Source of the DNA: a virus
Strand: one strand, 5' to 3'
Virus genome (UHGV): UHGV-0306641
Length of the DNA stretch: 64,000 nt
Below the pieces are notes generated by a model. The model searched no databases. It was not told where the DNA came from and saw nothing but the letters and a program-made list of their open reading frames with translations. Position numbers and translations under genes: made by a program. Of this stretch, positions 9,386 to 54,440 are shown one piece after another. Each line of letters starts with the position of its first letter. Position 1 is the first letter of the stretch.

Positions 9386-9856
9386 AGGGCGGCTAAGCCT
9401 TGCGATTGCGCGTGGCGCACGTTCACTCTCCACCTGATAGGGCTTAGTTCCCGGTGTGCTGCTTTCCACTGGTTTAACAGGCGCAGCATCATTCGGTAGT
9501 GGGGCTGGCTCAGACGCCTTGCCCGGTACCAAAGCCTCAGACTCAACTGGGGCAACTCGGCTGTTTTGTTTCTTTGGCTGGTGGTCTGCCGCAACCATTC
9601 CCATCAATGACATAGCCATGCTGATAAAGCGCTCAGCGCGTTCGTTTTCCGGCAATGCCATCAGATCCTGACGTTCCATTAGTGCAACCAGAGCGCCCAG
9701 CCCCATTTTCTCCAGTGCATAACCGTAACGCAGACAATCCAGCATTAGCCGACGTTTAGCGGCGTTACTCTGCAGGCCATTGTATTCGTGTGCCAGCGCG
9801 TCAGTTAAGGGGCTGTACTCAGCCAGCCCGGTAATCTTGATGGTTTGTTTTGTCAT
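9365..9856 (-). CDS. ParR-like centromere-binding adaptor candidate (partner of ParM)
   Basis: small gene translationally coupled downstream of actin-like ATPase; disordered Pro/Ala-rich C-terminus; no direct motif proof. Confidence 0.45.
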   Translation of the reverse strand: MTKQTIKITGLAEYSPLTDALAHEYNGLQSNAAKRRLMLDCLRYGYALEKMGLGALVALMERQDLMALPENERAERFISMAMSLMGMVAADHQPKKQNSRVAPVESEALVPGKASEPAPLPNDAAPVKPVESSTPGTKPYQVESERAPRAIARLSRPSDDSNT

Positions 9857-10935: not shown

Positions 10936-11046
10936 ATCCAAATTCCTATTAGCTAATTTCAAAGTAATAAATCGCAACTGGAATGTACCATAAAGCCTCA
11001 AAAAGTCCATATTAAAGGAACTATTTAGCAATCATATGGGCAATAA

Positions 11047-34186: not shown

Positions 34187-34849
34187 CTAGAGAATGCCAA
34201 TTTCTTGAGCCACCAGCTCGATTTGTGCCTTTGCTTTTCCAAGGCTATTACCGCGCGCTACATCATGAACACCGGCCCCTTCATTACATGCGCTTTCAAA
34301 AATATCGAGAGCCGCGAGGCGGTTTTTTAACGGTTGAATCCATACAGGATCTGAACGCAGGTACTTATCCAGCTCGATGGCATCTTTAACTTTGCTTGGC
34401 TTATTGGTTTCTATCCTGGTAAGAAGAACCCACGGGGATAATTTAGGGTTGGCGTTTTGAGCTTTACGCACTTTCTCGGTTACAGCTGTAAGCGTATTAC
34501 GTTCAAATTTAGATGATGGCTTAACCAGAGTGATAAGGATATCCGCAACGGTTAACGCACTACGGAACTCCTTGCTATCGTGACCGGCACAGTCAACAAG
34601 GACGTATTCAAACATAGCCGTCAGCTTTACGATCTCTTTACTGATCTCGCCATACGCCTCATAAACAGGAACAACGGGTAAGCCATTGCTTCTGCGGTCC
34701 TCTCCCCAGTTGACCATGTCCTGGTTTTTATCGGACTTCAGAATGCAGCACGTCTTTCCCTTGTTAACGAGCATTGACGCCGTATTAGCTGCAGTAGTGG
34801 ACTTCCCCACGCCGCCTTTATCCGACACATAAACAATCGACTTACCCAT
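34187..34849 (-). CDS. parA: small Walker-type partition ATPase ParA/ParF family
   Basis: deviant Walker A KGGVGKST; 220 aa. Confidence 0.85.
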   Translation of the reverse strand: MGKSIVYVSDKGGVGKSTTAANTASMLVNKGKTCCILKSDKNQDMVNWGEDRRSNGLPVVPVYEAYGEISKEIVKLTAMFEYVLVDCAGHDSKEFRSALTVADILITLVKPSSKFERNTLTAVTEKVRKAQNANPKLSPWVLLTRIETNKPSKVKDAIELDKYLRSDPVWIQPLKNRLAALDIFESACNEGAGVHDVARGNSLGKAKAQIELVAQEIGIL

Positions 34850-36960: not shown

Positions 36961-37845
36961 TCAGGTTATTTTCTTATCGCGGCTAAGAATGTTCAGGACA
37001 AAATCACCACGAACTTTTTCAATACTGTATTTGAGAAATCCGGCTTCAGATAATTGCTCAAGCGCCTTTTTAATGGTCGCATTTTGCGCCCCTTTATGGG
37101 ATGTAAGCTGTAAGCGATCACGCAATCTATCGAAACCAATACGATAAAAATTATCAGGCAATTCAACGAGGTAAAGGTATAGAGCCTGTGCTGACTCTTT
37201 TCTTGATAAGGTCTTCAGTACCTTCAGGTATAAGCGAGTCTTCCCGTCAACCTGATAGAGTGTATTCAGGTCGGGGTTTGGGCGAATAATGACCTCGTCC
37301 GTACCTTCGTCATAGTAAGAAGTCGTAACAAGGCCCATGTTGATATTGACCTTTTTACCCTCTACCGATGATGGTTTCACAAACTTAAAGCTGGTACGCT
37401 GAATACGGGTTAATGAATCGTTGAATCTCTTTCTAAGCTTTGAGTCAACGCGCTTAGTAGCAAGCCCACAACTCATTGCAAAGTCTATGAAATTCATGCG
37501 AACCGTGCCGTTTGCATCCAGGTGCTGATGTGCCAAAGTATCAACGATCCCCAGCCACACTTTGAAGTCGGTATCCATATCGAGCCTCGGACCATAAATA
37601 CTGACGCTTTCATAGCCTTCACCCGCCAGCGTTGATAGGCGGCAAAGTTCTTCAGTAGCATCAACGGTATGGCTACGTTTCATAGGATCAACACCGTCTT
37701 TCACCGTCGGAACAAACACACCCAGGCGCAGTAAAGACTTAGGCTGAATACTTTGTTTTGAGTTAGGAATCAGGTGGATAACTTCACCAGAAGTTTTGTC
37801 AACTTCCGTGATCAAAAGAGCTAAGCCATTGTTTTCTTTTTCCAT
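36961..37845 (-). CDS. repA: plasmid replication initiator RepA (P1 R-replicon type); alt TTG start 37863
   Basis: LLRLGVFVP, IYGPRLDMDTDFKVWLGIV, ESAQALYLYLVELPDN, TIKKALEQL...YSIEK align with P1 RepA. Confidence 0.85.
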   Translation of the reverse strand: MEKENNGLALLITEVDKTSGEVIHLIPNSKQSIQPKSLLRLGVFVPTVKDGVDPMKRSHTVDATEELCRLSTLAGEGYESVSIYGPRLDMDTDFKVWLGIVDTLAHQHLDANGTVRMNFIDFAMSCGLATKRVDSKLRKRFNDSLTRIQRTSFKFVKPSSVEGKKVNINMGLVTTSYYDEGTDEVIIRPNPDLNTLYQVDGKTRLYLKVLKTLSRKESAQALYLYLVELPDNFYRIGFDRLRDRLQLTSHKGAQNATIKKALEQLSEAGFLKYSIEKVRGDFVLNILSRDKKIT

Positions 37846-37884
37846 TCCATCTTCCGCAATCAATGTGGACTTTTTTAAGAGAAT

Positions 37885-41230: not shown

Positions 41231-41521
41231 GTGATGGCATCAATGGCGGTAAGGCTATATTACAACTCAGCTGATATGCGAACGAGGGCCAGTGATGCCT
41301 GGCATACTGAATGGATCAGTAAAAGCGGTTTGAAAGCGCGACTTTGGACTGATAAGGCCATCTCAGATTTTCTCGGAAAACCTCAGAAAGCTGGTCCCAT
41401 TATGGCGTGGAAGCAAAAAGAAGTGCAGCAGGTTGAAAATACCACGGCGTTTCAAAACTGGATGGTGAAACGCCGTGCATGGTTAACCGCGCGAGGGAAA
41501 TTACCCGCAGATGATAGTTGA
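41231..41521 (+). CDS. hypothetical protein (96 aa)
   Basis: ORF with GGAG RBS. Confidence 0.55.
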   Translation: MMASMAVRLYYNSADMRTRASDAWHTEWISKSGLKARLWTDKAISDFLGKPQKAGPIMAWKQKEVQQVENTTAFQNWMVKRRAWLTARGKLPADDS

Positions 41522-41833
41522 CTGGCTACCGTCTTGTTTACGGCATTTTGGGCACCGGTTGTCGCAGAAATACGGAAAGCTGTTATCCAGCTCGTCCACC
41601 CAGCGCTTGTGATCGTAACAGTAGAAAACCTCCCACGGCAGGCCATACTCAAACATCCATTCCTGGACCTGCGCTGTCATAGGTATTGGCGGGATCGTGC
41701 TCTGGTTGGTGCTGTAGCAATTCAGGCGTTCTTCTGCCTCACGCAGCTGGCGTTCAAGGCTCGCTATTTGTTGACGCATCAGCCGCCGTTCTCTCAGCAT
41801 TTTGAAGTAAATGCTCTCGTCAGTTACTGCCAT
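41501..41833 (-). CDS. coiled-coil + C-terminal zinc-ribbon small protein, paralog A
   Basis: PWEVFYCYDHKRWVDEL...CPKCRK; start MAVTDE. Confidence 0.55.
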   Translation of the reverse strand: MAVTDESIYFKMLRERRLMRQQIASLERQLREAEERLNCYSTNQSTIPPIPMTAQVQEWMFEYGLPWEVFYCYDHKRWVDELDNSFPYFCDNRCPKCRKQDGSQSTIICG

Positions 41834-42116
41834 CTTCCCCCCTGCAGCCCGGACACGTCCCGTAGGTATCGTGCGGGAAGCTACTACACAACTCATCAAG
41901 CCAGCGTTCGTGTTCATAACACCAAAAAACCTCCCACGGAACCCTGTGCTTTTTCATCAGCGCCATAAGGTTTATTGGCATATCTGCCGGTTGGCGTTCT
42001 TCAGGAAGCAGTTGCCCGGAGAGTTGCCTTTCCATGCGGTCCAGCTGGCGTAAAAGTTCTGCATTATCTCTCTCCAGTTGCTCACATTTGGCCTGGAGTT
42101 CAGTTTTAGTTGGCAT
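41820..42116 (-). CDS. coiled-coil + C-terminal zinc-ribbon small protein, paralog B
   Basis: PWEVFWCYEHERWLDEL...CPGCRG; tandem duplicate of neighbour. Confidence 0.55.
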   Translation of the reverse strand: MPTKTELQAKCEQLERDNAELLRQLDRMERQLSGQLLPEERQPADMPINLMALMKKHRVPWEVFWCYEHERWLDELCSSFPHDTYGTCPGCRGEDGSN

Positions 42117-42123
42117 AATTCCC

Positions 42124-42510
42124 CTAAATTACGGGTAGCTCATCAGTTGCCGCATTTAATGCGGAGTTAATGAGGAATGTAACGACTCCCACGACCGTTA
42201 CATCATCAAGAGCATCCCCTTCAATAGCCTCGCCGTCGTCGGTTATCAGCGACCGCCCCAGTACGCGCGCAAAGTGAGTGCGACCACAGAATGAGATCAG
42301 CACCAAGTTGCTCTGTTTTGGCCTGAATGAGCGGTTAACAACGGCGTAGCCGGTCGATGTTTGTATGGTCAAACAGTTCGCGTCGTTCTGGCAGATATCG
42401 TCAACGGTAAGACGGCGTTCGACATAATCATTTGCTGGTGATGGAAAGCCCACGGGAATACCTCGCGCAATAGTACTGGTTATATATACAGTATTATTGC
42501 GCGAGAGCAT
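42124..42510 (-). CDS. humD: UmuD'-like protein (P1 HumD equivalent), S24 peptidase fold
   Basis: GFPSPANDYVERRL matches UmuD GFPSPAADYVEQRI; length 128 aa. Confidence 0.8.
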   Translation of the reverse strand: MLSRNNTVYITSTIARGIPVGFPSPANDYVERRLTVDDICQNDANCLTIQTSTGYAVVNRSFRPKQSNLVLISFCGRTHFARVLGRSLITDDGEAIEGDALDDVTVVGVVTFLINSALNAATDELPVI

Positions 42511-42524
42511 GGTGTCAATTCCTG

Positions 42525-42821
42525 TTATATGCGATATTTTTTGGTAATGTGCTCCATGGTGCGATCAATGACGTGTACAAGGCATTTTGCGTCCTGTGTA
42601 TCAGCCAGCTGAGGGTTGCCGTTCGTCACCTCATACTGTAGTGGTGCTTTGACAATGTTCAGTACATCGAGCGCGCGCTGCGGATCATCCTCATGAATCA
42701 TCAGCTCCGCCAGCTCCAGTTGCTGTGTAGCGATCAGGTTGGTAATTTCCTGCTGGTGGCCCACCAGCATTTGCTGCAGCCGGTGCGCATGACGCGCCAG
42801 CAATTCTTCGCGCTTGCTCAT
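42525..42821 (-). CDS. hypothetical protein (start MSKREELL)
   Basis: ORF. Confidence 0.45.
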   Translation of the reverse strand: MSKREELLARHAHRLQQMLVGHQQEITNLIATQQLELAELMIHEDDPQRALDVLNIVKAPLQYEVTNGNPQLADTQDAKCLVHVIDRTMEHITKKYRI

Positions 42822-42822
42822 C

Positions 42823-43722
42823 TTATTTATCCTCTCCGCAGCCACACCAGTAATGCTTATTTCCAGCACAACGTAATACATGGGCATTTCTGCCGCATCG
42901 AGGGCAACTGATTAATTCGCCTTCGGACTGTATTTCTTCACGAGTTGGTGTAGCTTCTTTCTGAGGGTCCGCCAGAAAAGCAAGGCACATACTGGCCCAG
43001 GTATCTTTAGCGTAATCTGATGCCTCGATATCCTTGCGTGAAGTAACTCGCCATTGTCCATTCTCGTTCAATCGTCGGAATATTTTGGTACCGATATTTT
43101 CGATCTCAGGTACGTGTTTAAGGCAAAGACGGCGCTGCAGTAACGCCTCCCCTGCAGCTATGTTGGCATAGGCCCATGGATTAAAATAACGCGTCGAACG
43201 CAACCCATCAGCTTCCGGTCTTGCCATAGATACGCGCTGCGGTTTCACTCCTGACCTCTCAAGTACCTCAGCCAAATGCCTGCCCAACCCCTCTTCCGCA
43301 ATAACAACATGCCAGACATTTTGTTTAATCCGGGACAGTACCTCTTCTTCGGTCAGATGCTCACCAATATCAACCACAATAAAGCGTCTTTCGTTCATTT
43401 CTCCAGATACGCGGAAAAGAGAAAAGTTGATACCTGAAAGGCTACTGCTATAGCTACAGCAAGCTACTAGCTGTGAAGTAGCCCAATCAAAATTGACCAC
43501 GGATGTATTGCTCTGCTTTGCCTTGTTAAGTTCAGTTTCGGTGTATAACGGCATCCATAAATTATCTGAGCCGCACGGTACCACTCCACTCTTTATTAAT
43601 GTGCTGCTTAATTTTGCTCTCAGTTGCTGTGTATTCTGGTATTTAATTGCTGTATCAAATAGTGCGTTTACCAGGTCCCGATAAAGATGCGGTGGTAACG
43701 GGTATAAGTCTGAGTTAGGCAT
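42823..43722 (-). CDS. hypothetical protein with C-terminal Cys4 zinc ribbon (299 aa)
   Basis: CPRCGRNAHVLRCAGNKHYWCGCG. Confidence 0.6.
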   Translation of the reverse strand: MPNSDLYPLPPHLYRDLVNALFDTAIKYQNTQQLRAKLSSTLIKSGVVPCGSDNLWMPLYTETELNKAKQSNTSVVNFDWATSQLVACCSYSSSLSGINFSLFRVSGEMNERRFIVVDIGEHLTEEEVLSRIKQNVWHVVIAEEGLGRHLAEVLERSGVKPQRVSMARPEADGLRSTRYFNPWAYANIAAGEALLQRRLCLKHVPEIENIGTKIFRRLNENGQWRVTSRKDIEASDYAKDTWASMCLAFLADPQKEATPTREEIQSEGELISCPRCGRNAHVLRCAGNKHYWCGCGEDK

Positions 43723-44023
43723 TGATATTCACCTTTATTGCAAACACCTTCACCGGCTCGGCACCAAAGTGAGGATGAGTTATTGTCTCTATGTCATAGC
43801 CGTCATACGGAACAACTATGCGCCGATCCGCGTCGTCTTTGCGTGGATAGCCCCTGGTAATAATCAGGCGGTCATATGAGCGGCCTACCAGCCGTTTAGT
43901 CCAATAGTCATTACACAAACGGTACTCTTTGGGTTTTTCTCCACGCTTCATCGCGTCAAAGTATTCGCCGTTTACCGCCAGTTGGAGATCAGCCATTCTT
44001 TTTATTCCGGTGATAGGTAGCAC
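43715..44023 (-). CDS. ASCH-domain protein
   Basis: GEKPKEYR (GxKxxExR ASCH motif). Confidence 0.6.
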   Translation of the reverse strand: MLPITGIKRMADLQLAVNGEYFDAMKRGEKPKEYRLCNDYWTKRLVGRSYDRLIITRGYPRKDDADRRIVVPYDGYDIETITHPHFGAEPVKVFAIKVNINA

Positions 44024-44222
44024 GTAACAGATTGATAATTTCCTCTACGACTATCCAGATAACAAATATAGGAATAGGCGCAAACCAAAATAAACCTAAT
44101 AAAAAAGCTTCACGTGGATTTCTTTCAAGACCGCATTCATCATCACGCTTTAGCGAATAGAAATACACACCAGCAAACCCCAGCAGGTAAACAATCAGAG
44201 AAGTTAAAAAATTATTATCCAT
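43989..44222 (-). CDS. small two-TM membrane protein (77 aa)
   Basis: two hydrophobic helices. Confidence 0.45.
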   Translation of the reverse strand: MDNNFLTSLIVYLLGFAGVYFYSLKRDDECGLERNPREAFLLGLFWFAPIPIFVIWIVVEEIINLLRATYHRNKKNG

Positions 44223-44226
44223 TAGT

Positions 44227-44433
44227 TTATTTCCTGTGTCCTACGGTCATTATTTTTAATTCCAGTTCCGCACTACGGCGTTCCTGAAGTTCATCAAGCG
44301 CGTAGCAAATATCTGCAATCTCACGACTGCAAAGCATATGGTGGCTGTAATTTCTAATATGCTTTAACTCGTTAATGCGCTCGTCTGTTATATAGTCACT
44401 GTTTACTGCCAGGCGCAGGTTCGCCACCAGCAA
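44227..44433 (-). CDS. hypothetical protein (68 aa)
   Basis: ORF in operon. Confidence 0.35.
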   Translation of the reverse strand: MLVANLRLAVNSDYITDERINELKHIRNYSHHMLCSREIADICYALDELQERRSAELELKIMTVGHRK

Positions 44434-44451
44434 CCTCCTTATCCATGTGTT

Positions 44452-45186
44452 TTAGTAAATTCTCGTACCGTTGGTGCCGTCGCTGCCAATCCCAAGATGC
44501 AGCTCCATACCTGGTGTGATTTCTTCTTGCTTCAAACCCGGTATTTGATGGGTGTGGCCTCCTCCTAACTCCCAAATCATGACTCTACTACCACAACATT
44601 TTTCACACCCTACAACTCCCTGTGTATGTGCTCCTGGGGGAAAACCATGATTGCAAGCCGCGCGGCGAAAAGCATTGAGTTCGGCTCTCTCTGAGGTGGT
44701 CAGTGGAGACTCTACCGCAACCGCTTTCACAGGATGATTGGCATTGGTGCAGCCCTTACCGCAAATCGTACATTCAGCAACCATCACCGGCTCTGGCTGC
44801 TTATCCGTTATCAAATCAACGTTATCCGTTATGATCGGCTGTCCAAGCATCGCTTTAAAGGCAGCAATGCCAGCATCATGTTCTGCTCGTTGTTCCGGCG
44901 TCATAGCGTCAAGCTCGGCGTTGTATTCTGCACGGCGCTGTAGAGCATCCAGTATTAGTGACGTTTTAACCCCTTTACCAAACCGTAACCCAGGCTCCAG
45001 AAATACAGGGCATGGCAGCTTTTCAGGGTATGAATTTGTTGATCGGGGTGCAGCCTCCAGCGATGCCAGCGCGATACGCGCCAGATCTTCGGCTTCTTCT
45101 GCTGGCAGCACAACGTTGCTACCAGGTCCATATGTTTCGCGCCACGATTGGATTTTTAGCAGGCGTTCTCTGGTAATAGTGGTCAT
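44452..45186 (-). CDS. hypothetical Cys-rich protein (244 aa)
   Basis: ORF. Confidence 0.6.
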   Translation of the reverse strand: MTTITRERLLKIQSWRETYGPGSNVVLPAEEAEDLARIALASLEAAPRSTNSYPEKLPCPVFLEPGLRFGKGVKTSLILDALQRRAEYNAELDAMTPEQRAEHDAGIAAFKAMLGQPIITDNVDLITDKQPEPVMVAECTICGKGCTNANHPVKAVAVESPLTTSERAELNAFRRAACNHGFPPGAHTQGVVGCEKCCGSRVMIWELGGGHTHQIPGLKQEEITPGMELHLGIGSDGTNGTRIY

Positions 45187-46133
45187 TTTGCATCCCCTTT
45201 AATCATGGCGGCGCGGCTGTTCCATGCTGATTTCAAATTTTCTTTAAACCCAAATTCAACATGAGATGAAGCCCCGCATTCAGTACAGGTAATAACATCA
45301 CCACCAAAATGCGGATCGTTATCTTGCTCAATGGTGAGTTGACGCGCTTTACCGCCACAAAATGGGCATGGCATAAGCCCATTTGCTGAATCCGGTACTA
45401 CTGGCGCTGGTGGCATACCAGCATTTGGGTGTAATGCCCGGATGCCATCAGCTATCTCTGCTAACGTGTCGGAATAGTCGCGCTGTGCGTCATTGCCAAA
45501 TTCAAACGAACCTGTGTCGTTATCCTGGCGTCCGTGCTCGTTGTCGTAGGATTCGCGTTGCTGGTCTACCCAATTAGCGGCGGCTTCTATGCCATCACGA
45601 TAGAACGAAACAGTAGGCAACACCTTGTAAGGCTCGCTTACAGGTTTAGCTGTAGGTGTATTTTTGTGGTTGTTCCATGATCCTACTTCATCATCAACTT
45701 TTCCCTGAAGCATGGCGGCGCGGCGGATTTCGCTCTCCAGTTCTTCAGCCCAATCTTGCCACTCCTCCGGCAATCCGTTTTTACTGCTGGCTACGTGATT
45801 AGCCAGTTTATAGAGTTCATCATTCATTACCGGCGCAGGCTGGGGGGCTGTGTAAACGATGCGCCCTGTACCACCGGCGCTAACAACGCTCTCGTAAATC
45901 TCTTTAGTGGTGTCGTACCAATCATCGTTAATTAGTTGGTAAATCGGATCAGAGCGGTCAGCATCGCGACGTTGCTGCAGCTCCACCAGCGCAATGAGCG
46001 TGAGGGACTGAAGGGCATGTTGAACTTTATTCCCCTCGTTGGCGTGGTGCTCTACGCCACTTTTGCGTATCTCTATCAGATCCGTTAGGGCTTCATCGTC
46101 CAAACTATCCGGCGTAATTGGCTGTAGTTCCAT
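45183..46133 (-). CDS. protein with C-terminal Lar-like CPFCGG zinc ribbon
   Basis: MPCPFCGGKARQ...CTECGA resembles Lar/restriction-alleviation family ribbon. Confidence 0.55.
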   Translation of the reverse strand: MELQPITPDSLDDEALTDLIEIRKSGVEHHANEGNKVQHALQSLTLIALVELQQRRDADRSDPIYQLINDDWYDTTKEIYESVVSAGGTGRIVYTAPQPAPVMNDELYKLANHVASSKNGLPEEWQDWAEELESEIRRAAMLQGKVDDEVGSWNNHKNTPTAKPVSEPYKVLPTVSFYRDGIEAAANWVDQQRESYDNEHGRQDNDTGSFEFGNDAQRDYSDTLAEIADGIRALHPNAGMPPAPVVPDSANGLMPCPFCGGKARQLTIEQDNDPHFGGDVITCTECGASSHVEFGFKENLKSAWNSRAAMIKGDAK

Positions 46134-46426
46134 TATTTATCCTCCTGCATTTGCGGTCCATACACCGGAAACATGCGTACAATATTCACTTTTGAAAACG
46201 GGAAAAGCTGGTCATACGGGTAGTTTGCTGGGAGTGAATCTTCGTTAACCCACATAAGTGGCTCGGCTGTTAAAGCTGCCAGTGTGATTTCAGCCAGGCG
46301 AAGATGAATTCTTGCAATCTCAGAGTTGCCCGGTAATCGGGTTACGGCCCCCTCCAGCACTTCAATATTTTTTCGCGCCTGTTCAATCAACTGCTCTTTG
46401 GTAAATTCTCTGGTAATAATTGTCAT
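46133..46426 (-). CDS. hypothetical protein (97 aa)
   Basis: ORF. Confidence 0.5.
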   Translation of the reverse strand: MTIITREFTKEQLIEQARKNIEVLEGAVTRLPGNSEIARIHLRLAEITLAALTAEPLMWVNEDSLPANYPYDQLFPFSKVNIVRMFPVYGPQMQEDK

Positions 46427-46629
46427 GGGTTAGTCCTTGAAATTTTATGACCTGGTGCGAAAGCTCGTGTCCTGTCTTTGCTGATACGCCAGCCATGTGA
46501 CCGCGCCTCTTTAGCGCAGCTGGACCACGACGAACCAATGTACTCGCCAAAATCAGGGCTTCCCCATTCCTTTGCTGTGCATTCCTCACAGTCACAATGA
46601 AGATGAACGGTGTAATTTGCAGCTATCAT
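46423..46629 (-). CDS. small zinc-binding protein (68 aa)
   Basis: HCDCEEC motif. Confidence 0.45.
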   Translation of the reverse strand: MIAANYTVHLHCDCEECTAKEWGSPDFGEYIGSSWSSCAKEARSHGWRISKDRTRAFAPGHKISRTNP

Positions 46630-46630
46630 C

Positions 46631-47065
46631 TCACTCCCCCTTCACGCCAATGCCAGCGGCGGCAAGTGCTTCACGAAACGCACCAACAACTGCACAGGTG
46701 TTAAACATGTCATCGTTGATGCTGCCATCATCGTTACGGTAATCGGATGGTAATTTAACGGTCACCGTCCGCGCCCCCAGTTCTGCTATGCGCTGGCGAA
46801 GTGCGGCAATTTCCATCTCGGCGGCGTCGGCATAATGGATGTTTGCATGCTCTTTCAGGTGGTTACAGGCCATCATGAAGCCGCGATGATGCTCACGATT
46901 AGCTCGGCAAATTCCCTCTTCAATACGCTTCTCTGCGTCCTCCAGAGCGCCAATAATCACCTCAAATTCATCCCAGCGAATGATTGGCGCGTAAACATCA
47001 CCAGAGCCGCGCTTCAGCCTGATATCTGAAATAATCGACTGAGCCTTTTTTTTGAGTGCTGTCAT
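46631..47065 (-). CDS. hypothetical protein ending LAAAGIGVKGE
   Basis: shares 3' 30-bp repeat with gene at 47483. Confidence 0.55.
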   Translation of the reverse strand: MTALKKKAQSIISDIRLKRGSGDVYAPIIRWDEFEVIIGALEDAEKRIEEGICRANREHHRGFMMACNHLKEHANIHYADAAEMEIAALRQRIAELGARTVTVKLPSDYRNDDGSINDDMFNTCAVVGAFREALAAAGIGVKGE

Positions 47066-47250
47066 TGGGATTTCCCCTTACTCAGTTTCCGGCGACATGC
47101 GGCGCAGTCGTCAGAACTTTCGAAAGTGTCTGGTTCGCGGTCATGACCGAAGTACATCCAGCGACCACAGATGCTGGTAGCTTCATTCTCAGCGAAGAAA
47201 TGGTGTTTATTGGCGTTAACCGGCCTGGCCCATCCTGCTTTTTTGCTCAT
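47062..47250 (-). CDS. small Cys protein (62 aa)
   Basis: ORF. Confidence 0.4.
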   Translation of the reverse strand: MSKKAGWARPVNANKHHFFAENEATSICGRWMYFGHDREPDTFESSDDCAACRRKLSKGKSQ

Positions 47251-47501
47251 GATGCAGCTCCTTCAGTTTTCTTTTCGTCGACGCTCCAGGCTGTAGCCAG
47301 TGCATGCGTCACGTGATAAAACGAATGCTTGACCTTCACAGAGAAAGTTTCTCCAGTAGCCGAAACTGTCTCGATGGTCGTTAGCTCGCCGCCGCTTTCG
47401 TGGTCTGGATAGAACTGTGTAACCAAGTTGGTTTCGACAATCACCGAATCATCAGCCGTGTTCATTTTTAGTCTCATGACACTCAATTCCCCTTCACGCA
47501 A
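47247..47501 (-). CDS. hypothetical protein (84 aa)
   Basis: ORF. Confidence 0.45.
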   Translation of the reverse strand: MREGELSVMRLKMNTADDSVIVETNLVTQFYPDHESGGELTTIETVSATGETFSVKVKHSFYHVTHALATAWSVDEKKTEGAAS

Positions 47502-48109
47502 ATGCCAGCGGCGGCAAGCACTTTGCTAACTAGAACCTTGTAAGCGTTTTGAGCACGTACAGCGTCAACGGACCGCCATTTCTCTACATCTGGCAATTCA
47601 ACTTCCGCCGCCAGCTCCCGCGTTTCCATTTCATCCGGTACTACAGGCGCTGGTACGTCTTCCCATTCACGGATGACTGCCGCAAGTTTCTCGGCGTCAG
47701 ATGCGGAAATATCACCATCAATAAACATCACTGGCTTACCCTTATTCGCCTCCAGTTCTGCTATGCGCTCCTCATAGCGGGCACCAATGGAAACGGCTTT
47801 TTTAAATGCCTTGAACCATCTTGCTGAATCCTGCTTTGCTGCTTCCCGCTCATCCAGCATCGCAAGAACGTCCGGGTCGCTAACATCAACGATAGTGACG
47901 CGGGATTGTTCATAATGGTCATCCGCGATACTGCGGCCTTCTGCGTAGTGGCATCCCGTATCGTCATAGGTCGCCCCTGTACACCCATAAGTGATGCGGC
48001 TGGCAGACATACGCTGTACAGTCATTTCCGCGCCGCAAATGTGGCATTTCGGCACGGGTTTTGGTGAATAGCGCTCACGTAAAGCAGTTAAGTCGGTCAT
48101 CTGGCTCAT
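47483..48109 (-). CDS. hypothetical zinc-ribbon protein ending LAAAGICVKGN
   Basis: CHICGAEM...GCTGATYDDTGCH; shared C-terminal module. Confidence 0.55.
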   Translation of the reverse strand: MSQMTDLTALRERYSPKPVPKCHICGAEMTVQRMSASRITYGCTGATYDDTGCHYAEGRSIADDHYEQSRVTIVDVSDPDVLAMLDEREAAKQDSARWFKAFKKAVSIGARYEERIAELEANKGKPVMFIDGDISASDAEKLAAVIREWEDVPAPVVPDEMETRELAAEVELPDVEKWRSVDAVRAQNAYKVLVSKVLAAAGICVKGN

Positions 48110-48378
48110 AAACGTTTCTTTGCCTCAAATTGAAATTGGTCTTCCTCTTCCGCTTCGTGGCGATCACGTTCGCTGCAAAGGAAGTCATATTCCGTCTGGA
48201 TTTCTGCAGGCCAGGCGTCAGTGTTCTGACCGTATTCTTCCTGAATGGCGGAGATACGCTTTACACACTCGCGGTACGGGTTTTTGATGGGATTTGCTGG
48301 GGTAAGCATGGAAAATAGTTCGTCCAGGCTTCCGGCCCCCTTAATGCTGGCGATCAGCTGTTCAGCGACTTTAGCCAT
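48106..48378 (-). CDS. hypothetical protein (90 aa)
   Basis: ORF. Confidence 0.5.
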   Translation of the reverse strand: MAKVAEQLIASIKGAGSLDELFSMLTPANPIKNPYRECVKRISAIQEEYGQNTDAWPAEIQTEYDFLCSERDRHEAEEEDQFQFEAKKRL

Positions 48379-49075
48379 GGTTAGCCTCCCTGGTAGCGAG
48401 GAAGGTGGTCATCGACTTTTCGATCATCGGCGCAGCACGGTACCGGCTGATACCCCACACAATAGCGAATAGAATCCATTGGAAATGGCTGGTATACGTC
48501 TTATAGGAAATGTCAGCGCACAATTCCCATATATCTACACAGACAGGCCAGTCAGCTTCATAAACGGCGTTATATGCCAATACATCGTTATTGAAATCCT
48601 CACGGCACAGCTCGCGAACGATTTCACGAATACGGGATTTGTCACTGTCTGGTTCGTCGTCTTCGTCGCTCCAATCAACGTCTGGCTCGTTTTCGTCGTC
48701 TTCAAAATATGTGCTTAGCAATTCCTTCAAGGATGAGCAAAATTCGTCATGATCATATGACTTAGCAAGCAGCTCACGAGCGGAACAACCGGCACCAGCC
48801 TCAAGTTTTTCAGACCAATAATGCGTGTTAATCTCCAGCGTATTGCGCGCAAAAAAATCAAACATGTCGTAGGTACGGGTAAACGTCCAGGTCCCCATAT
48901 CGCCGCAGATAGTCAGATAGCCAGGCCATGTAATGAGATCGAAGTAATAGCAGTTGGTCCCCGGTTGTTGGAAACGGATGTGACGATAAACGCCGTCCTC
49001 TTTCAGAATGGTCATTTGATGGTTACAAACATCCCGAACAAATTGGCTTAAAGTGTCGCGCTGTTTCAGTTTCAT
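48371..49075 (-). CDS. hypothetical acidic protein (234 aa)
   Basis: ORF. Confidence 0.55.
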   Translation of the reverse strand: MKLKQRDTLSQFVRDVCNHQMTILKEDGVYRHIRFQQPGTNCYYFDLITWPGYLTICGDMGTWTFTRTYDMFDFFARNTLEINTHYWSEKLEAGAGCSARELLAKSYDHDEFCSSLKELLSTYFEDDENEPDVDWSDEDDEPDSDKSRIREIVRELCREDFNNDVLAYNAVYEADWPVCVDIWELCADISYKTYTSHFQWILFAIVWGISRYRAAPMIEKSMTTFLATREANHG

Positions 49076-49665
49076 TGTGTTGCATCCTTGCGAATTGACT
49101 GCAGGTAAGCTTTTAACGGCTCAGAATCACCATGACCTACACCTACACTGTCGGCTCCGAGGGGCCATGAAGCTCTTTCCGTTCCACCAGGGAAACGGAA
49201 ATAAACGACGATCTCTTTTTTGAAGTTTTGGTGTGCTGTGACGTCGGAAATGCCGGGAAATTTAGCGATCGCTTTTTCAATGGCTTCCAGCTCTGCGGCC
49301 TTTATGCGCTGACGCTCCGTTTCAGCATCAATGAGGTAATTCATCCAGCGCGCCTGGCATTCAGCGTCACAGTAAGCGGTGTCGCCATCCCACACGCGGC
49401 CCTCAGTTTCGTTATCAACGTGACACTGGCAATATGCGCATTCTTGCCACCAGCCAAACTCTTCAACCAGTGCGTAGCCTGGCACTTTCCCCAGCTCTGC
49501 ATATTTGTCTGCTCCGGGCATGCGTTTGCACGATATACCGCTAAACTCTTCTTCCAGCTCTTGAGCACCTTCACGTCGTGCCACAACATTGCTGGTGGCA
49601 AACCGGACAATGCCGTATTCATCACCCTGAATATGGAATGCTTTTAATATCTGCTTTTCCGTCAT
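49072..49665 (-). CDS. hypothetical Cys-rich protein (197 aa)
   Basis: CAYCQCH...CDAEC. Confidence 0.55.
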   Translation of the reverse strand: MTEKQILKAFHIQGDEYGIVRFATSNVVARREGAQELEEEFSGISCKRMPGADKYAELGKVPGYALVEEFGWWQECAYCQCHVDNETEGRVWDGDTAYCDAECQARWMNYLIDAETERQRIKAAELEAIEKAIAKFPGISDVTAHQNFKKEIVVYFRFPGGTERASWPLGADSVGVGHGDSEPLKAYLQSIRKDATQ

Positions 49666-49676
49666 GGTATTAGTCC

Positions 49677-50030
49677 TTATTTCGTTTGCATTCTGAGCAA
49701 TTTAAAGCCGATGTTGCATGTTTCACACCGGGCAGACATTGAGCCTGAGCGGGACTGTTTGAGGCTGTATTTTTTGCATTGGGGGCAAGTCACCTCAGTT
49801 ATCCGTATAGCCATGAGGCGATTGATTTCGTCGCGCATTTGAGGCGATTTAGAGCGGCGCTTCTTGCGTGGCGGGGCTATACCCAGCGCTTTAAGCGTCT
49901 GGTTGTATTCTCTACGAATCCAGTTGCCGCCTGGTTCATCGGCAAGGCCGTCACCAATCATGTCACCCAGTTTGATTAACTGTTTTTGAAGGTATTTTTT
50001 GGTTTCTTCGTTTAGGTTGCTGGTACTCAT
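49677..50030 (-). CDS. zinc-ribbon protein (117 aa)
   Basis: CPQCK...CETC. Confidence 0.5.
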   Translation of the reverse strand: MSTSNLNEETKKYLQKQLIKLGDMIGDGLADEPGGNWIRREYNQTLKALGIAPPRKKRRSKSPQMRDEINRLMAIRITEVTCPQCKKYSLKQSRSGSMSARCETCNIGFKLLRMQTK

Positions 50031-50662
50031 CGCGATCCCTCGCAGGTGTAGTTTTTGCAGCCTTCAAAGTCATAGGGATTCAGCTGCCAGCTAATACGCC
50101 CACAAAACGGGCAGTTCCAGCGAGTTTTGCCAGTGTTCTGGCGTTTATTCTTGCGCTTCAGGTGCGCCGGTACGCGCAACCCGGCTCCCTGAGTCATCTT
50201 GCGACGGTTAAGAAGGTTGATGTTGAAAGTGCGACGCTTTGCGGCATCCGCGACGGAGAACGGCAACCACACAAGGCCTTCGCTGTCTTCCCGCGCCGTT
50301 GTGTAGGTAGCTGCTTTGCTAAAATCAGTCGTTGGTAATGAGCCGTCTGCCAGCCAGTACACATCATTGCCGTCCCACTCTCCTTTAACGAATGCGACGT
50401 AGGCGTGGCAACCGTCCACCAGCGTTGTTTTGCCTGGAATATGCTGGTGGTCAACATGCCATACAGTCAGAGCGTCAATGCAGTCTGCAGACACTGGCAG
50501 GTCAATATCCCTGCCGTGCTCCCATGCTGATTGTGCTGAATGCAGAGTGTATACATGCGCTGAGTCAACATTGGTGCTGTAACCCTGTCCATTGGCGCAA
50601 TGAAAGGACATATTGGTTCCGGTTGTATCGCGCAGGCATGCCATATAAAAGCGATCGCTCAT
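50027..50662 (-). CDS. protein with C-terminal Lar-like CPFCG ribbon (211 aa)
   Basis: WNCPFCGRISWQ...CKNYTCEG. Confidence 0.55.
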   Translation of the reverse strand: MSDRFYMACLRDTTGTNMSFHCANGQGYSTNVDSAHVYTLHSAQSAWEHGRDIDLPVSADCIDALTVWHVDHQHIPGKTTLVDGCHAYVAFVKGEWDGNDVYWLADGSLPTTDFSKAATYTTAREDSEGLVWLPFSVADAAKRRTFNINLLNRRKMTQGAGLRVPAHLKRKNKRQNTGKTRWNCPFCGRISWQLNPYDFEGCKNYTCEGSR

Positions 50663-50958
50663 AGCGCGGCCTCCGGGCTAATGCCTTTCGGCGCAACTTT
50701 TAGCTTTAACACGACGGGGCCGTCGCGAAAGTTACCATCGACGATCCCGTCAAGCTCCTGGATCTCCTGCTTAGTCAGGTTGTGCATTTTTGCAATGCAG
50801 TAATTCCCTTTAAGAACTCCCACACCTGTCGCGCGGCAGGACGTTGAGCCATAGCTGTAACCGTGCTTATCTAGCCATTTCTGGCATTCGTTCCACGCTT
50901 TGAAATCACCAATACCACTGAAAACCTTCTTAAACATTTTCAGCCCCCTTGTTATCAA
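50659..50958 (-). CDS. hypothetical protein (99 aa)
   Basis: ORF. Confidence 0.45.
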   Translation of the reverse strand: MITRGLKMFKKVFSGIGDFKAWNECQKWLDKHGYSYGSTSCRATGVGVLKGNYCIAKMHNLTKQEIQELDGIVDGNFRDGPVVLKLKVAPKGISPEAAL

Positions 50959-51142
50959 TGGGGCGAATGGTGTCCAGCTTCAGCCGACGCTTTGTGTTCG
51001 GCGCGCCGATACGACGCCCGGTAAACTTGTCGTATGTTTCTCTTGGGCCAGCGCACCAGGTAGTTGCTGTTTCACGCAACTTGATACGCTTATCTCCATC
51101 TTTGGTAACGACTTCGCCGGTATGGGTTTTAGGCTGGCTCAT
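50930..51142 (-). CDS. hypothetical basic protein (70 aa)
   Basis: ORF. Confidence 0.4.
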   Translation of the reverse strand: MSQPKTHTGEVVTKDGDKRIKLRETATTWCAGPRETYDKFTGRRIGAPNTKRRLKLDTIRPIDNKGAENV

Positions 51143-51654
51143 GCCTTACGCTCCTGTAACTTCAAGACCTGCTTGCGATGTTCCTCACTCTGCGGAACCC
51201 CTGTGAAGTTGACTGCAATGAAATATTCGATCCGGTCTTTTGTCGTTGCGTCATCAAGAATTACTGCTGTAAGTGTCGGACGACCAAAGGACAATTGTTC
51301 TGCCCTAGAAAACTCAAACCAGAATATTTCCTCATCACCAATAACAATTGGGATCTCATTGTTGATGAACATTTTGAGCGTTGTCAGACGCTGTTTACCG
51401 TCTACAACTTCAATGTAAGGGCCGTCAGAAGCATCCCAATCAGGTGCTTTTGCTAGTGCCACACTTCCAATCGGGAAACCTGATATCAAAACACGCAGAA
51501 AAGTTTGTTGTTCTTCTTCGCCCCAAACATATTCGCGCTGATACTCAGCGCCGAAATTAAGTACGCCTCGGCGAATCCAGTCGATATACATATCGATTGG
51601 GTATTCTCCGGTTCGCGCACGAAATACTTCAGCTTCACGAATACGGTTGCTCAT
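51139..51654 (-). CDS. DUF262/ParB-like nuclease-domain protein (stand-alone, 171 aa)
   Basis: VVDGKQRLTTLKMFIN matches DGQQR(L/I)T(T/S) signature of DUF262 (GmrSD N-domain family). Confidence 0.6.
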   Translation of the reverse strand: MSNRIREAEVFRARTGEYPIDMYIDWIRRGVLNFGAEYQREYVWGEEEQQTFLRVLISGFPIGSVALAKAPDWDASDGPYIEVVDGKQRLTTLKMFINNEIPIVIGDEEIFWFEFSRAEQLSFGRPTLTAVILDDATTKDRIEYFIAVNFTGVPQSEEHRKQVLKLQERKA

Positions 51655-51887
51655 TCCGCTTCCCCTTCTTTAATTTTCCGCACCATTTCAGTCCACATAG
51701 GGGCCAGTATTTCTATCGCTTTCTCTTTGCTACCAGCTGGGCCTTCGAGCTGCGCGCGGTAATGGTCGTATGGACATTTAATGCCACCTCTATTCCAACC
51801 AAACTGATCAGCTTTCAGTGCGAACTCAGGGGTATTGCCGCAAGCTGGGCATTTAGGTAACGATTTTTGTATTTCTCCGACGTTCAT
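51651..51887 (-). CDS. Lar-like zinc-ribbon small protein (78 aa)
   Basis: LPKCPACGNTPEF...CPYDH. Confidence 0.45.
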   Translation of the reverse strand: MNVGEIQKSLPKCPACGNTPEFALKADQFGWNRGGIKCPYDHYRAQLEGPAGSKEKAIEILAPMWTEMVRKIKEGEAE

Positions 51888-51933
51888 CCTGCTTTTTCCT
51901 TATGCAAATTTGTGGCTCTGAAGCGCGTCGTTG

Positions 51934-52125
51934 TTACGATCTCTTCTGTTTTCTGCGTCCACTTTTTCGGTAACTGCTACTGCCATACACCAGCGCTAAA
52001 AGGCTCGACGCCATGGCTATTTTTCCCGCTGTTTCTGTTCCCCACTCCGCCCCCCACGCCAGGGCTATCACCAACCCCCAGCAGAGAAACGCCAGGCCAA
52101 CAAACAGCGCCCGGACCAGCCTCAT
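51934..52125 (-). CDS. small membrane protein (63 aa)
   Basis: two hydrophobic segments, basic C-terminus. Confidence 0.35.
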   Translation of the reverse strand: MRLVRALFVGLAFLCWGLVIALAWGAEWGTETAGKIAMASSLLALVYGSSSYRKSGRRKQKRS

Positions 52126-52562
52126 TTTTTAGGCCTGAAGACCTGACTCATTTCCTCTCCGCCGGTTTCAATCAGGATCTGCTTTAGCCCTTTTGATGCG
52201 GAGCCTTTGCCGCGTTCCTCCAGAAAATCGACGGCTTTTTTCGGTAGGTAGAAGGTCTTGGATACGGGGGTATCAATCTTTCTTGGCGCGCCCACGCGGG
52301 GATAGCAAACCGCTTTGATGATTTCTTTGTTATTGGCGCTGGTGGGCATGTCGAGAATTATCTTCCCGGCACGTTTAAGGATGATGCGATCCGCTAACTG
52401 CCGCGTTTCCTCTTCCTCTGTCAGAAGTTCATGCAACCGGGCATCAATAAGCCGACGTGAGTCCGTCTGGTAGTTATGGCTGGTCGCCCCAGTTTTGTAT
52501 GAAAAAAAAATCTCGTAAGCCACGGCAATTCCCTGTTGGATAATTTCAGAGTAAAGATACAT
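52122..52562 (-). CDS. hypothetical protein (146 aa), first gene of minus-strand early operon
   Basis: ORF. Confidence 0.5.
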   Translation of the reverse strand: MYLYSEIIQQGIAVAYEIFFSYKTGATSHNYQTDSRRLIDARLHELLTEEEETRQLADRIILKRAGKIILDMPTSANNKEIIKAVCYPRVGAPRKIDTPVSKTFYLPKKAVDFLEERGKGSASKGLKQILIETGGEEMSQVFRPKK

Positions 52563-52614
52563 GTAAATCTAACAAAAATAAATTAAATCTATGGTATTTT
52601 TTGAAGTGGGTTAA

Positions 52615-52688: not shown

Positions 52689-54440
52689 GTGAGCAAAGAT
52701 ATTTCGCCTGCCCGCGCGCGAATGGATGAAATCAACCAACGCGCCGCGCGTGTCGCAGCATTCACCGTTGATATTCAAAAAAAGAATGGCGTCACCATTA
52801 CCGATCCTAACGAGCTGGCTCAGGCTTCACTGGATGCGGCATTACGTGATCCGATGTTTGAAGGTGTTGACCCACGCTTTGTGAAGCGTGTCGCGAGCGC
52901 GTGGACGTCGGCGATGATCGAGCACCAGCAACGTACCGGTGATTTGCCATCACCAGACCTGCTGGCAAACGCGCAATATTGCTGTGAAAACCTGATGTTG
53001 GAAGCCGCATCTGACAAACATGAAGGTGTTGGTCGCGCGATGTTTGAATCAGCTGCAGCTGATATGCGTACCTCTGATGGTGTTTTACGTCTGGCCCAGT
53101 TCGTAGCGCTTATCCTGCCGGTATCTTTGGGTGCAGCAACGTCTGACGCATGTACTTTCGTACCGTGCGATCGTGATAAAGCCAATATTTACGAACTGCT
53201 TAACGTCGCAGGGACGGAGTTCGGCTCATTCAAGGTCGGTGACGAGCTGCACATGCAAGCCGCCGGTATGTATTCGCAACTCAAGCGTTACTACATCTTC
53301 CCCGCAGATCTTCAGCCAGATGGTACGAAGAAAACCTTCAACTTTGGAATTAAAGCAGTTGAAGGGAAAGATATGGCTATCCGTGCCGGTCGCACGAAGC
53401 TGATCATTAACCGCCGTCAATCTAAAGCTGATGACGGCGACGGCAACCTGTATTTCAACGATAAAGATGCTAACGGGACGGCATTCTCCGCCACCTGTAA
53501 AGTTGCTTATGACAAAGGTACGGTCGCTGTCACCTTCACTGAAGCACCTGCAGCGGGTACTGAATTAGCGATTCAGCTGGAAATCAACATCGAAAAAGCG
53601 CCAGAGCTTATTCCTGTGATTAACCAGTCCATGCGTGAATGGCAGGTTAGCCCTTCTCAGTATGTTGTTGCATCCGAGCACACTGTCATGTCTGCATCTG
53701 ATGCCAGCCGTGAATTTGGCCTCAACATGCAGTCGATCCAGTTTACTGCAATGCGTAACTGGCTCTCCCATGAGCAGGACATGATGCGTCTGCGCCTAAT
53801 GGCGTTTTTCTGTATCGAAAAATACGACTTTGACGTAGCGCTGCCGGAAGCTCAGCAATATGAATCCTGGGTTGGCCTGCTTCGCCATCGTGTGAATGAA
53901 ATGAGCACGGCGATGGTCAATAAAACCCGTAAATCCGGCATTCGTGGCGGTTTTGCTGGTGGTGAGGCTGCGAACTTTATTAAGTCTCTCCCGCCGCAGT
54001 ATTTCTCCCAGGACCCGAACTACGTTGAAAGCCCTCACGTCCAGTACATCGGTACGCTGTTTGGCTACATCCGTATTTTTGAAGTCCCGACCGCTGTTTG
54101 TGACCAGTTCGTAAAAGATGGCTATGACTTCAATTCAAATGAAGTTATTTTCTACGGTCGCGGTAACAGCATTGGTGAAGCAGGTCTTATCACCGGTGAT
54201 GCCGTGCCTGCCATTCCTTATATCCACGAAACCAATCCTTCTTTGGTGAACCGCACCACTATGTGGGGATCTGCGCTTAACGAGATCCATCCGCGTAAAG
54301 GTGAAGCCTATTTCTGCAAGCTGCAGCTGACCAACGCCAAAGTTGGCGCATTCAACATGCTGAACGGAAAGAAAATCGAAGCAGGTCAACCGACTGAGCC
54401 TGAAGTGCCGGAAGTGGCTGACGCCAAATCCACCAAATAA
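52689..54440 (+). CDS. virion structural protein (583 aa; GTG start)
   Basis: first gene of tail module under conserved promoter element. Confidence 0.6.
   Translation: MSKDISPARARMDEINQRAARVAAFTVDIQKKNGVTITDPNELAQASLDAALRDPMFEGVDPRFVKRVASAWTSAMIEHQQRTGDLPSPDLLANAQYCCENLMLEAASDKHEGVGRAMFESAAADMRTSDGVLRLAQFVALILPVSLGAATSDACTFVPCDRDKANIYELLNVAGTEFGSFKVGDELHMQAAGMYSQLKRYYIFPADLQPDGTKKTFNFGIKAVEGKDMAIRAGRTKLIINRRQSKADDGDGNLYFNDKDANGTAFSATCKVAYDKGTVAVTFTEAPAAGTELAIQLEINIEKAPELIPVINQSMREWQVSPSQYVVASEHTVMSASDASREFGLNMQSIQFTAMRNWLSHEQDMMRLRLMAFFCIEKYDFDVALPEAQQYESWVGLLRHRVNEMSTAMVNKTRKSGIRGGFAGGEAANFIKSLPPQYFSQDPNYVESPHVQYIGTLFGYIRIFEVPTAVCDQFVKDGYDFNSNEVIFYGRGNSIGEAGLITGDAVPAIPYIHETNPSLVNRTTMWGSALNEIHPRKGEAYFCKLQLTNAKVGAFNMLNGKKIEAGQPTEPEVPEVADAKSTK

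Follow-up and report, generated by a model that had tools for sequence, protein, structure and literature searches.

The interval 45183–51887 of the virus genome UHGV-0306641, analyzed here as a window of 64,000 nucleotides, lies in a typical mosaic accessory operon of P1/D6-type phage-plasmids, in which cassettes and domains have been cleanly swapped. In the reading that we regard as probable, this operon combines one Lar restriction-alleviation domain, one distant Lar look-alike, and an independent, stand-alone DUF262 protein (mini-DUF262), and plausibly serves in counter-defense. A preliminary description of the same DNA had treated the interval as an anti-restriction or counter-defense island centered on four open reading frames (ORFs), all of which are present on the minus strand at 45183–46133, 50027–50662, 51139–51654, and 51651–51887. 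Counter-defense remains plausible for part of the operon; the genes probably do not form a coordinated island, and a single protein passes the thresholds of hidden Markov models (HMMs) for Lar.

Lar of the Rac prophage is a small stand-alone protein that alleviates EcoKI-type (type IA) restriction and promotes modification. Its counterpart in the window resides in the 316-amino-acid protein encoded by 45183–46133. Residues 253–308 match the Pfam family Lar_restr_allev (PF14354) with 32.7 bits (cut-off 28.6), and the protein also matches the NCBIfam model anti_R_Lar (TIGR03655) with 42.2 bits (cut-off 39.6) as well as phrog_599 and phrog_38103, both of which are labeled Lar-like. These HMM searches uphold the membership in the Lar family that had been proposed from the cysteine pattern. 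Like Rac Lar, residues 253–308 consist of a CPFCG...CxxCG four-cysteine ribbon (CPFCG at residues 256–260) that precedes an A-W-N-x-R motif, and relatives of the domain form a tight family with the pattern CPFCGG...GGDVI.C..CGASSHVEFG.KENL..WN.R. Unlike the small stand-alone Lar, the domain constitutes the C-terminal 25% of a chimera, the N-terminal ~240-amino-acid module of which is phrog_12449-like.

The two parts of this gene have different relatives. The Lar module is encoded by about 45183–45413, and nucleotides 45211–45413 match only the gene of a 178-amino-acid protein annotated as Lar family in Citrobacter plasmid L024 (2392–2928; 94.6%). Nucleotides 45403–46406 match sister plasmid L002 (5763–6743), in which the N-terminal ~240 residues are followed by an unrelated helical C-terminus; in sister plasmid L001 (5905–6429), the counterpart of the gene is truncated. 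Because the Lar-encoding 3' end and the N-terminal module match different plasmids, ribbon modules appear to be exchanged in frame, and comparison of these sequences identifies the 316-amino-acid protein as a recent in-frame chimera of a Lar ribbon and an N-terminal module. The suggestion that ribbons are modular units joined to different N-termini is therefore supported by in-frame swaps between sister plasmids, but the ribbons are heterogeneous and do not constitute one family of inhibitors. Lar and Ral, which had been grouped as one family, are functional analogs that belong to separate sequence families, and no Pfam match to the Ral family was found among 20 operon proteins at E ≤ 0.1. The action of lambda Ral on HsdM, analogous to that of Lar, has been reviewed (PMC12707154).

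The 78-amino-acid protein (51651–51887, minus strand) contains CPACG at residues 13–17 and, at E ≤ 0.1, matches none of the Lar HMMs in Pfam, NCBIfam, and PHROGs. Searching 1.8 billion representatives exhaustively with a profile retrieved only 19 relatives. The family alignment conserves C13-P14-x-C16, C38-P39-x-x-H42, G52, and W65, which defines a CCCH ribbon (C13, C16, C38, H42) and, behind it, a C-terminal helix that bears W65. Sub-threshold matches to Lar_restr_allev were obtained with 4 of 15 family members (best E value 0.0014), and alignment of the family to the Lar alignment with hhalign yielded a weak match (probability 22%, P value 9e-4) that extends over 63 columns and spans the whole domain. 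The AlphaFold2 model, which has a predicted local distance difference test (pLDDT) score of 88.9, contains three strands and a long C-terminal helix. When this model was compared with the viral structures in BFVD, matches named restriction alleviation protein (Lar) occupied ranks 1, 2, 4, 9, and 11, with E values of 0.012–0.11, probabilities of 0.87–0.99, and TM scores of 0.48–0.59. The predicted structure appears to resemble Lar in its strand-ribbon-helix layout; the protein differs from Lar in that CPxxH replaces the second CxxC, the W-N-x-R motif is missing, and the HMMs fail to detect it. We conclude from the model that the protein may adopt a distant Lar-like fold, a resemblance that falls short of demonstrated family membership.

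The 211-amino-acid protein (50027–50662, minus strand), which ends in a CPFCG...CxxxxC ribbon (CPFCG at residues 184–188), belongs elsewhere. It matches phrog_2457 over its full length (E value 5.5e-92), and its homologs occur in 162 phage records that include Stx phages, many Vibrio phages, and Pseudomonas phage F116. The family alignment conserves C184, C187, G188, and C202, and the chain stops at the second knuckle. No Lar match was found for this protein in Pfam, PHROGs, or NCBIfam, and hhalign of the family against Lar aligned only 17 knuckle columns with a probability of 10%. Its assignment to Lar was rejected, as the CPFCG knuckle is the only common element. Pairwise BLASTP of the 78- and 211-amino-acid proteins against the 316-amino-acid protein aligned only the CPxCG knuckle and carries no information on homology. 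The three Lar-like proteins originally listed are thereby reduced to one identified by HMM and one that lacks a Lar HMM match and may have a distantly Lar-like fold.

Cysteine knuckles are nonetheless clustered in this region, as had been noticed at the outset. Six-frame translation of the window contains five CPxCG sites compared with 0.5 ± 0.7 in mononucleotide shuffles, and four of the five (42906, 45368, 50113, and 51851) fall in genes of the minus-strand operon, so that the clustering exceeds chance. At least six additional small zinc-ribbon proteins had been proposed; we count five Cys-knuckle proteins inside the interval (68, 62, 208, 197, and 117 amino acids), among which only the 117-amino-acid protein has a clean four-cysteine ribbon. 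More knuckles are found just outside the interval in proteins of 244 (44452–45186) and 299 amino acids (42823–43722) and in two ORFs at 41501–42116. To judge from their family matches, the remaining zinc ribbons of the operon are a heterogeneous set of small modules that belong to unrelated families. The 299-amino-acid ORF ends in CPRCG...C.C. ORFs 41820–42116 and 41501–41917 are paralogous, sharing PWEVF(W/Y)CY(E/D)H(E/K)RW(L/V)DEL and a CPxC tail; as called, they overlap by 98 nucleotides, and one of the two starts is probably miscalled.

The 171-amino-acid protein (51139–51654, minus strand) passes the Pfam model DUF262/GmrSD_N (PF03235) with 71.4 bits (cut-off 33.2), confirming a call initially based on DGKQRLTT. 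DUF262 is defined by the motifs QRxxxW, DGxQR, and FxxxN (PMC12065111). These correspond to YQREYVW at residues 38–44, DGKQR at 85–89 (within DGKQRLTT, 85–92), and FIAVNFTGVPQSEEH at 145–159, the last of which reads FxxxNFxGVPQSxxH in pattern form. Y38-Q39-R40...W44, D85-G86-K87-Q88-R89, and F145...N149 show no or almost no variation among 24 diverse members of the DUF262 family. Profile searches of the PDB with the 171-amino-acid family retrieved BrxU (7p9k; E value 5e-6), two more DUF262 structures, and SspE (6jiv); single-sequence searches produced spurious matches only, and a profile was needed. The AlphaFold2 model (pLDDT 90.6) matched CTP-bound ParB (7bm8), Noc, PadC, BrxU (7p9k), sulfiredoxin, and KorB in Foldseek. 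Among viral structures, it matched many GmrSD_N proteins with E values down to 3e-12, several of which are stand-alone proteins of 141–185 amino acids. The model indicates that the protein has the ParB/Srx fold of nucleoside triphosphatases (NTPases), which carries all three motifs.

The best PADLOC match of the 171-amino-acid protein, to the Menshen protein NsnA (48.6 bits), covers profile positions 44–190 of 385, and phrog_1583 is matched at positions 9–176 of 417. Because both profiles are matched only in their N-terminal part, the protein corresponds to the NTPase domain alone; it ends at residue 171 and contains neither a ParBDB DNA-binding domain nor a nuclease. GmrSD, BrxU, and SspE (DUF262 plus DUF1524) share with it the N-terminal DUF262 ParB/Srx domain and the three motifs. 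Unlike these enzymes, the 171-amino-acid protein lacks the middle helical (ParBDB) domain and the DUF1524/HNH nuclease, and phages, some of them virulent, encode its family. A DUF1524/HNH partner is likewise absent from the flanking 78-, 70-, and 99-amino-acid ORFs in Pfam and PADLOC searches, in agreement with the preliminary description. NsnA, a sensor that combines ParB-DUF262 with ParBDB, is the top PADLOC match, yet only through its N-terminal half, and the same searches revealed no NsnB ATPase or NsnC effector near the gene. Short single-domain proteins with the ParB-CTPase fold occur in phages (PMC12704722), and these proteins, together with activators of T-dioxygenases, resemble the 171-amino-acid protein in having a ParB/Srx fold without a DNA-binding domain. 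They belong to the ParBc branch (PF02195), whereas the 171-amino-acid protein belongs to the DUF262 branch (PF03235). The ParB-fold activators of T-dioxygenases also have a C-terminal dimerization domain and a conserved partner gene, and the 171-amino-acid protein has no conserved partner.

A DUF262 protein without its nuclease had been considered unusual, a view that the distribution of the family contradicts. The ~170-amino-acid family comprises 94 clusters at 90% identity, almost all of 160–190 amino acids, and tblastn located it in 298 phage records (254 with at least 80% coverage). Among the carriers are temperate Salmonella phages such as ST64B as well as phages of ~145 kb that infect Klebsiella and Erwinia, Hena1 being one example. 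T4-like phages of ~175 kb also contribute many records, from Klebsiella, Enterobacter, Cronobacter, Citrobacter, and Escherichia. Sb33 of ST64B is 67.5% identical to the 171-amino-acid protein. The stand-alone proteins of ST64B (Sb33), T4-like phages of the Slopekvirus/Karamvirus type, and Erwinia phage Hena1 have the same ~170-amino-acid architecture with identities of 37–68% and show no structural difference from the protein in the window.

The 78-amino-acid and DUF262 genes overlap by 4 nucleotides, and the two proteins had been suggested to work as a pair. The overlap exists but is not specific, as 13 of the 26 junctions in the operon have 4-nucleotide overlaps (the remainder are mostly –1 or –8). 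In sister plasmid L002 and Hafnia contig L016, homology to the window is interrupted between 51142/51144 and 51647/51649. In place of DUF262, this slot (51143–51646) is filled by an unrelated 133-amino-acid ORF (L002, 11575–11964; also in L016), and the 78-amino-acid gene is retained. Because the breakpoints fall at overlapping start and stop codons, the DUF262 ORF was swapped exactly, gene for gene. The replacement ORF was considered as a deoxynucleoside triphosphate pyrophosphohydrolase (DUF550-like), which Pfam does not support. Distribution separates the two genes further: the 78-amino-acid protein is present in 6 phage records compared with 298 for DUF262. The position directly upstream of DUF262 is occupied by sb34 in ST64B and by small unrelated ORFs in a T4-like phage of Klebsiella; in contigs of Buttiauxella and Serratia and in one from a metagenome, unrelated ORFs are again found there. 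A search for a conserved partner gene in these contexts identified none. Downstream neighbors of the 78-amino-acid family also vary (the 133-amino-acid ORF, DUF977, a methylase fragment, and a 135-amino-acid ORF). In Klebsiella phage ST405-OXA48phi1.2 (L003, 3004–4003), a 73-amino-acid homolog overlaps the start of a 261-amino-acid ParB-HTH protein with a DGRQR motif, a second instance of the small protein immediately ahead of a ParB-superfamily gene. A ParB-superfamily partner as a rule for the 78-amino-acid family was rejected, given that this arrangement occurs in one Klebsiella phage and five other contexts differ. On the evidence of these gene orders, the DUF262 gene is an independent, swappable cassette rather than the partner of the 78-amino-acid gene. 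The adjacent ST64B genes sb34, sb33 (DUF262), and sb32 (Ead/Ea22) all have homologs in the operon, where they are non-adjacent and differ in order.

Comparison of its genes and DNA identifies the window as a P1/D6-type Citrobacter phage-plasmid. The 583-amino-acid ORF at 52689–54440 has counterparts in the major capsid protein of Escherichia phage D6 (61% identity) and in gp23 of P1 (43.5%). The closest DNA relatives of 45183–51887 are ~85-kb non-mobilizable plasmids of Citrobacter freundii and C. portucalensis that encode capsid, tail, baseplate, and RepB; they match at 92–94% identity and cover only 53–72% of the interval. In the phage collection, nothing beyond a 241-nucleotide Ead/Ea22 fragment was common to the interval and any sequenced phage. 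Alignments with the sister plasmids consist of separate homologous blocks, the ends of which coincide with gene boundaries, and they show that the operon evolves by replacement of cassettes and domains at such boundaries. In phage D6 (L023, 9975–10842), the site upstream of the capsid gene that corresponds to 41501–52562 of the window is occupied by just two small genes, which indicates that the ~11-kb accessory operon is lineage-specific. Elsewhere, the window encodes Rep3, ParA, ParM, and a giant SNF2-helicase protein. Two different partition ATPases, of the ParM/StbA and ParA types (9856–11031 and 34187–34849), thus reside on one element together with a Rep3-type initiator (36961–37863). 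The giant protein (1623 amino acids; 21–4892) contains SNF2-related and Helicase_C domains and possibly represents a P1-type protein akin to DarB, injected to act in anti-restriction or as a helicase.

The operon contains ~27 tightly packed minus-strand genes that run head to tail from 52562 to ~41501, fewer than the 35 counted previously; the interval 45183–51887 would constitute its promoter-proximal part. The operon itself is flanked by the major-capsid gene on one side and by the Rep3/RepB replicon on the other. The label "early" finds little in the sequence: a weak sigma-70-like match is present at 52567–52540, promoter and terminator scans yielded counts no higher than expected from shuffles, and a search for P1 C1 operators, intended to probe early timing and control by a repressor, returned none. 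Nearly all operon genes are assigned to PHROG families of phage proteins that have no assigned function. The operon resembles ea/nin-type regions of lambdoid phages in that its small genes are packed with 4-nucleotide overlaps, include Ead/Ea22 members, form an extensive mosaic of cassettes, and for the most part have no assigned function. It differs from them in its location next to the capsid gene of a P1/D6-type phage-plasmid.

The remaining genes, all on the minus strand, follow in the order of transcription. The first, a 146-amino-acid ORF (52122–52562), matches phrog_7830 (E value 5e-32). Sister plasmids L001 and L002 annotate a 402-bp (133-amino-acid) version, so the true start is probably ~52523; this start would place the promoter-like hexamers at 52567–52540 upstream of the gene rather than inside it. 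A 63-amino-acid small hydrophobic protein (51934–52125) has a sub-threshold holin-like Pfam match only and no PHROG. Beyond the 78-amino-acid and DUF262 genes lie a 70-amino-acid protein (50930–51142; phrog_1226, E value 2e-25) that lacks a Pfam or PADLOC match and a 99-amino-acid ORF (50659–50958) without family matches; sister plasmids annotate 279-bp genes for the latter, and comparison with them suggests that its true start is probably 50937 (92 amino acids). The gene for the 211-amino-acid protein is followed by that for the 117-amino-acid protein (49677–50030), in which the C-terminal CPQC...CETC ribbon has sub-threshold matches to generic zinc ribbons only, and by that for a 197-amino-acid protein (49072–49665; phrog_8514, E value 4.5e-26) with a central CxxCxC...C...C cluster that is FCS/FLZ-like (zf-FLZ, 20.5 bits, under the 23.4 cut-off). 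Next are proteins of 234 amino acids (48371–49075; phrog_4657, E value 2e-63) and 90 amino acids (48106–48378; no Pfam or PHROG matches). The 208-amino-acid Ead/Ea22-like protein (47483–48109) passes PF13935 with 66.6 bits (cut-off 27) and has an N-terminal CxxC...C...C knuckle; its gene is 84% identical to sb32 of ST64B across 241 nucleotides. The 84-amino-acid protein (47247–47501; phrog_5994, E value 2e-44) is a homolog of ST64B Sb34, as determined by comparison of translations. It precedes a 62-amino-acid protein with C...CxxC (47062–47250; phrog_2358, E value 7e-29), a 144-amino-acid coiled coil resembling the Ead/Ea22 C-terminus (46631–47065; phrog_1138; Ead_Ea22 sub-threshold at 19.6 bits), a 68-amino-acid protein with an HxHCxCxxC...C cluster (46423–46629; phrog_926, E value 1e-28), and a Cys-free 97-amino-acid protein (46133–46426; phrog_20840/660). 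Downstream of the 316-amino-acid chimera, just outside the interval, the 244-amino-acid protein (44452–45186) is itself a mosaic with CTIC...C and CEKCC knuckles, separate segments of which match phrog_2960, phrog_60, and phrog_3323. The 102-amino-acid ORF at 43715–44023 is the counterpart of sister-plasmid genes for "ASCH domain-containing protein" and has no Pfam match at E ≤ 0.1.

These observations suggest a model in which the operon has been pieced together as a mosaic, its exchangeable cassettes stemming from an accessory pool of enterobacterial phages (Ead/Ea22, Sb34-like, phrog_2457, and others), with whole genes and in-frame domains exchanged at overlaps of start and stop codons. By homology to Rac Lar, the Lar module of the 316-amino-acid protein would most likely alleviate type IA (EcoKI-like) restriction and favor modification of incoming DNA, acting as the element enters a new host. 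The 78-amino-acid CCCH protein, as a diverged relative of Lar, may act similarly against another target. Because all NTPase motifs are kept under strong conservation, the mini-DUF262 is probably an NTP-binding switch or enzyme that acts in trans and not a dead decoy, and we infer that its most likely role is in counter-defense or host takeover aimed at nucleic-acid conflict systems. Enzymes of the GmrSD family are intertwined homodimers, and BrxU requires dimerization (10.1101/2024.01.29.577857); moreover, a separate GmrS-like subunit takes part in a two-gene type IV system (PMC12373910). These findings make it reasonable to propose that the mini-DUF262 may interfere with immune complexes based on DUF262 or substitute for a subunit in them. 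Several points weigh against this model. Most of the ~19 genes have no predicted function, and the counter-defense label is borne by 2–3 of them; the Lar call concerns a 56-residue domain a few bits over threshold in a non-canonical fusion; and a search of the literature on the function of the stand-alone phage DUF262 family found nothing specific.

Other explanations account for parts of the same evidence. A coordinated anti-restriction island, in which Lar-derived ribbons serve as modular inhibitors and the 78-amino-acid protein works with DUF262, would fit the enrichment of CPxCG ribbons in the operon, the in-frame exchange of C-terminal ribbons on diverse N-termini, the presence of a genuine Lar domain together with a predicted Lar-like fold, and the position of the 78-amino-acid homolog directly upstream of the ParB-HTH protein in ST405-OXA48phi1.2. 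We find such an island quite unlikely: the 211-amino-acid ribbon is not Lar, and the other ribbons match different families or none; DUF262 is swapped out in L002 and L016 where the 78-amino-acid gene is kept; the two genes differ widely in their occurrence among phages; and the downstream neighbors of the 78-amino-acid gene vary, the 4-nucleotide overlap being generic to the operon. It is also conceivable that the element defends its host, with DUF262 sensing modified or foreign DNA for superinfection exclusion as in GmrSD, SspE, and NsnA and an effector encoded elsewhere. Defense genes are common on phage-plasmids, and in addition to the top PADLOC match to NsnA, weaker matches to PD-T4-2_A, HEC-05/06, and SspE were obtained; one phage record labels a homolog "DefenseFinder protein", and the two-gene type IV system with its separate GmrS-like protein offers a precedent. 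However, no ParBDB, DUF1524, HNH, NsnB, or NsnC partner adjoins the gene here or in the contexts examined, the protein itself has no DNA-binding domain, and the same ~170-amino-acid family belongs to the core genes of many T4-like phages that are strictly virulent, where such a role is less expected. Prophage defense therefore seems very unlikely.

The least probable explanation, to which we assign a slim chance, lies in DNA metabolism or regulation: the mini-DUF262 would, in an NTP-dependent manner, activate or regulate an enzyme that modifies or processes DNA, and the ribbons would serve replication or recombination as DNA-binding or regulatory proteins. As a precedent, ParB-fold proteins of phages that have no DNA-binding domain serve as activators of partner T-dioxygenases (5mYOX enzymes; PMC13229309), and the short single-domain ParB-CTPase-fold proteins of phages provide a further parallel. 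The family is also present in Slopekvirus-type phages such as KP27, which are reported to have an unknown DNA modification (PMC5219037), and phrog_2457 homologs in Vibrio phages adjoin genes for Gam, primase, and methyltransferase. Yet the contexts examined contain no conserved enzyme neighbor, the family extends to phages not known to be modified, and the DUF262 gene is dispensable in sister plasmids. Alternatively, the mini-DUF262 may act as an NTP-regulated nickase, an activity that has been discussed for phage ParB domains (PMC5512222).

A more specific form of the counter-defense model can be envisioned, in which the ~170-amino-acid DUF262 family constitutes an unrecognized counter-defense class, an NTP-bound ParB/Srx domain that poisons DUF262 sensors, and the divergent 78-amino-acid CCCH family, with its putative Lar-like fold, is a second new anti-restriction family. 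The targets would be GmrSD, BrxU, SspE, Menshen NsnA, PD-T4-2, and Dazbog, and poisoning would occur through non-productive heterodimers or through competition for the DNA or NTP ligand of the sensors. The heterodimer mechanism is conceivable because BrxU and SspE are intertwined homodimers and BrxU needs dimerization. We consider the combined proposal unlikely as it stands. The mini-DUF262 family is, even so, the only lead of wider interest to emerge from this operon, in that it is strongly conserved, retains its catalytic motifs, and is found in both temperate and virulent enterobacterial phages. If it proved to be an antagonist of DUF262 immunity, it would represent a mechanistically new class of anti-defense proteins and would help to explain how phages survive GmrSD-, BrxU-, and Menshen-type systems.

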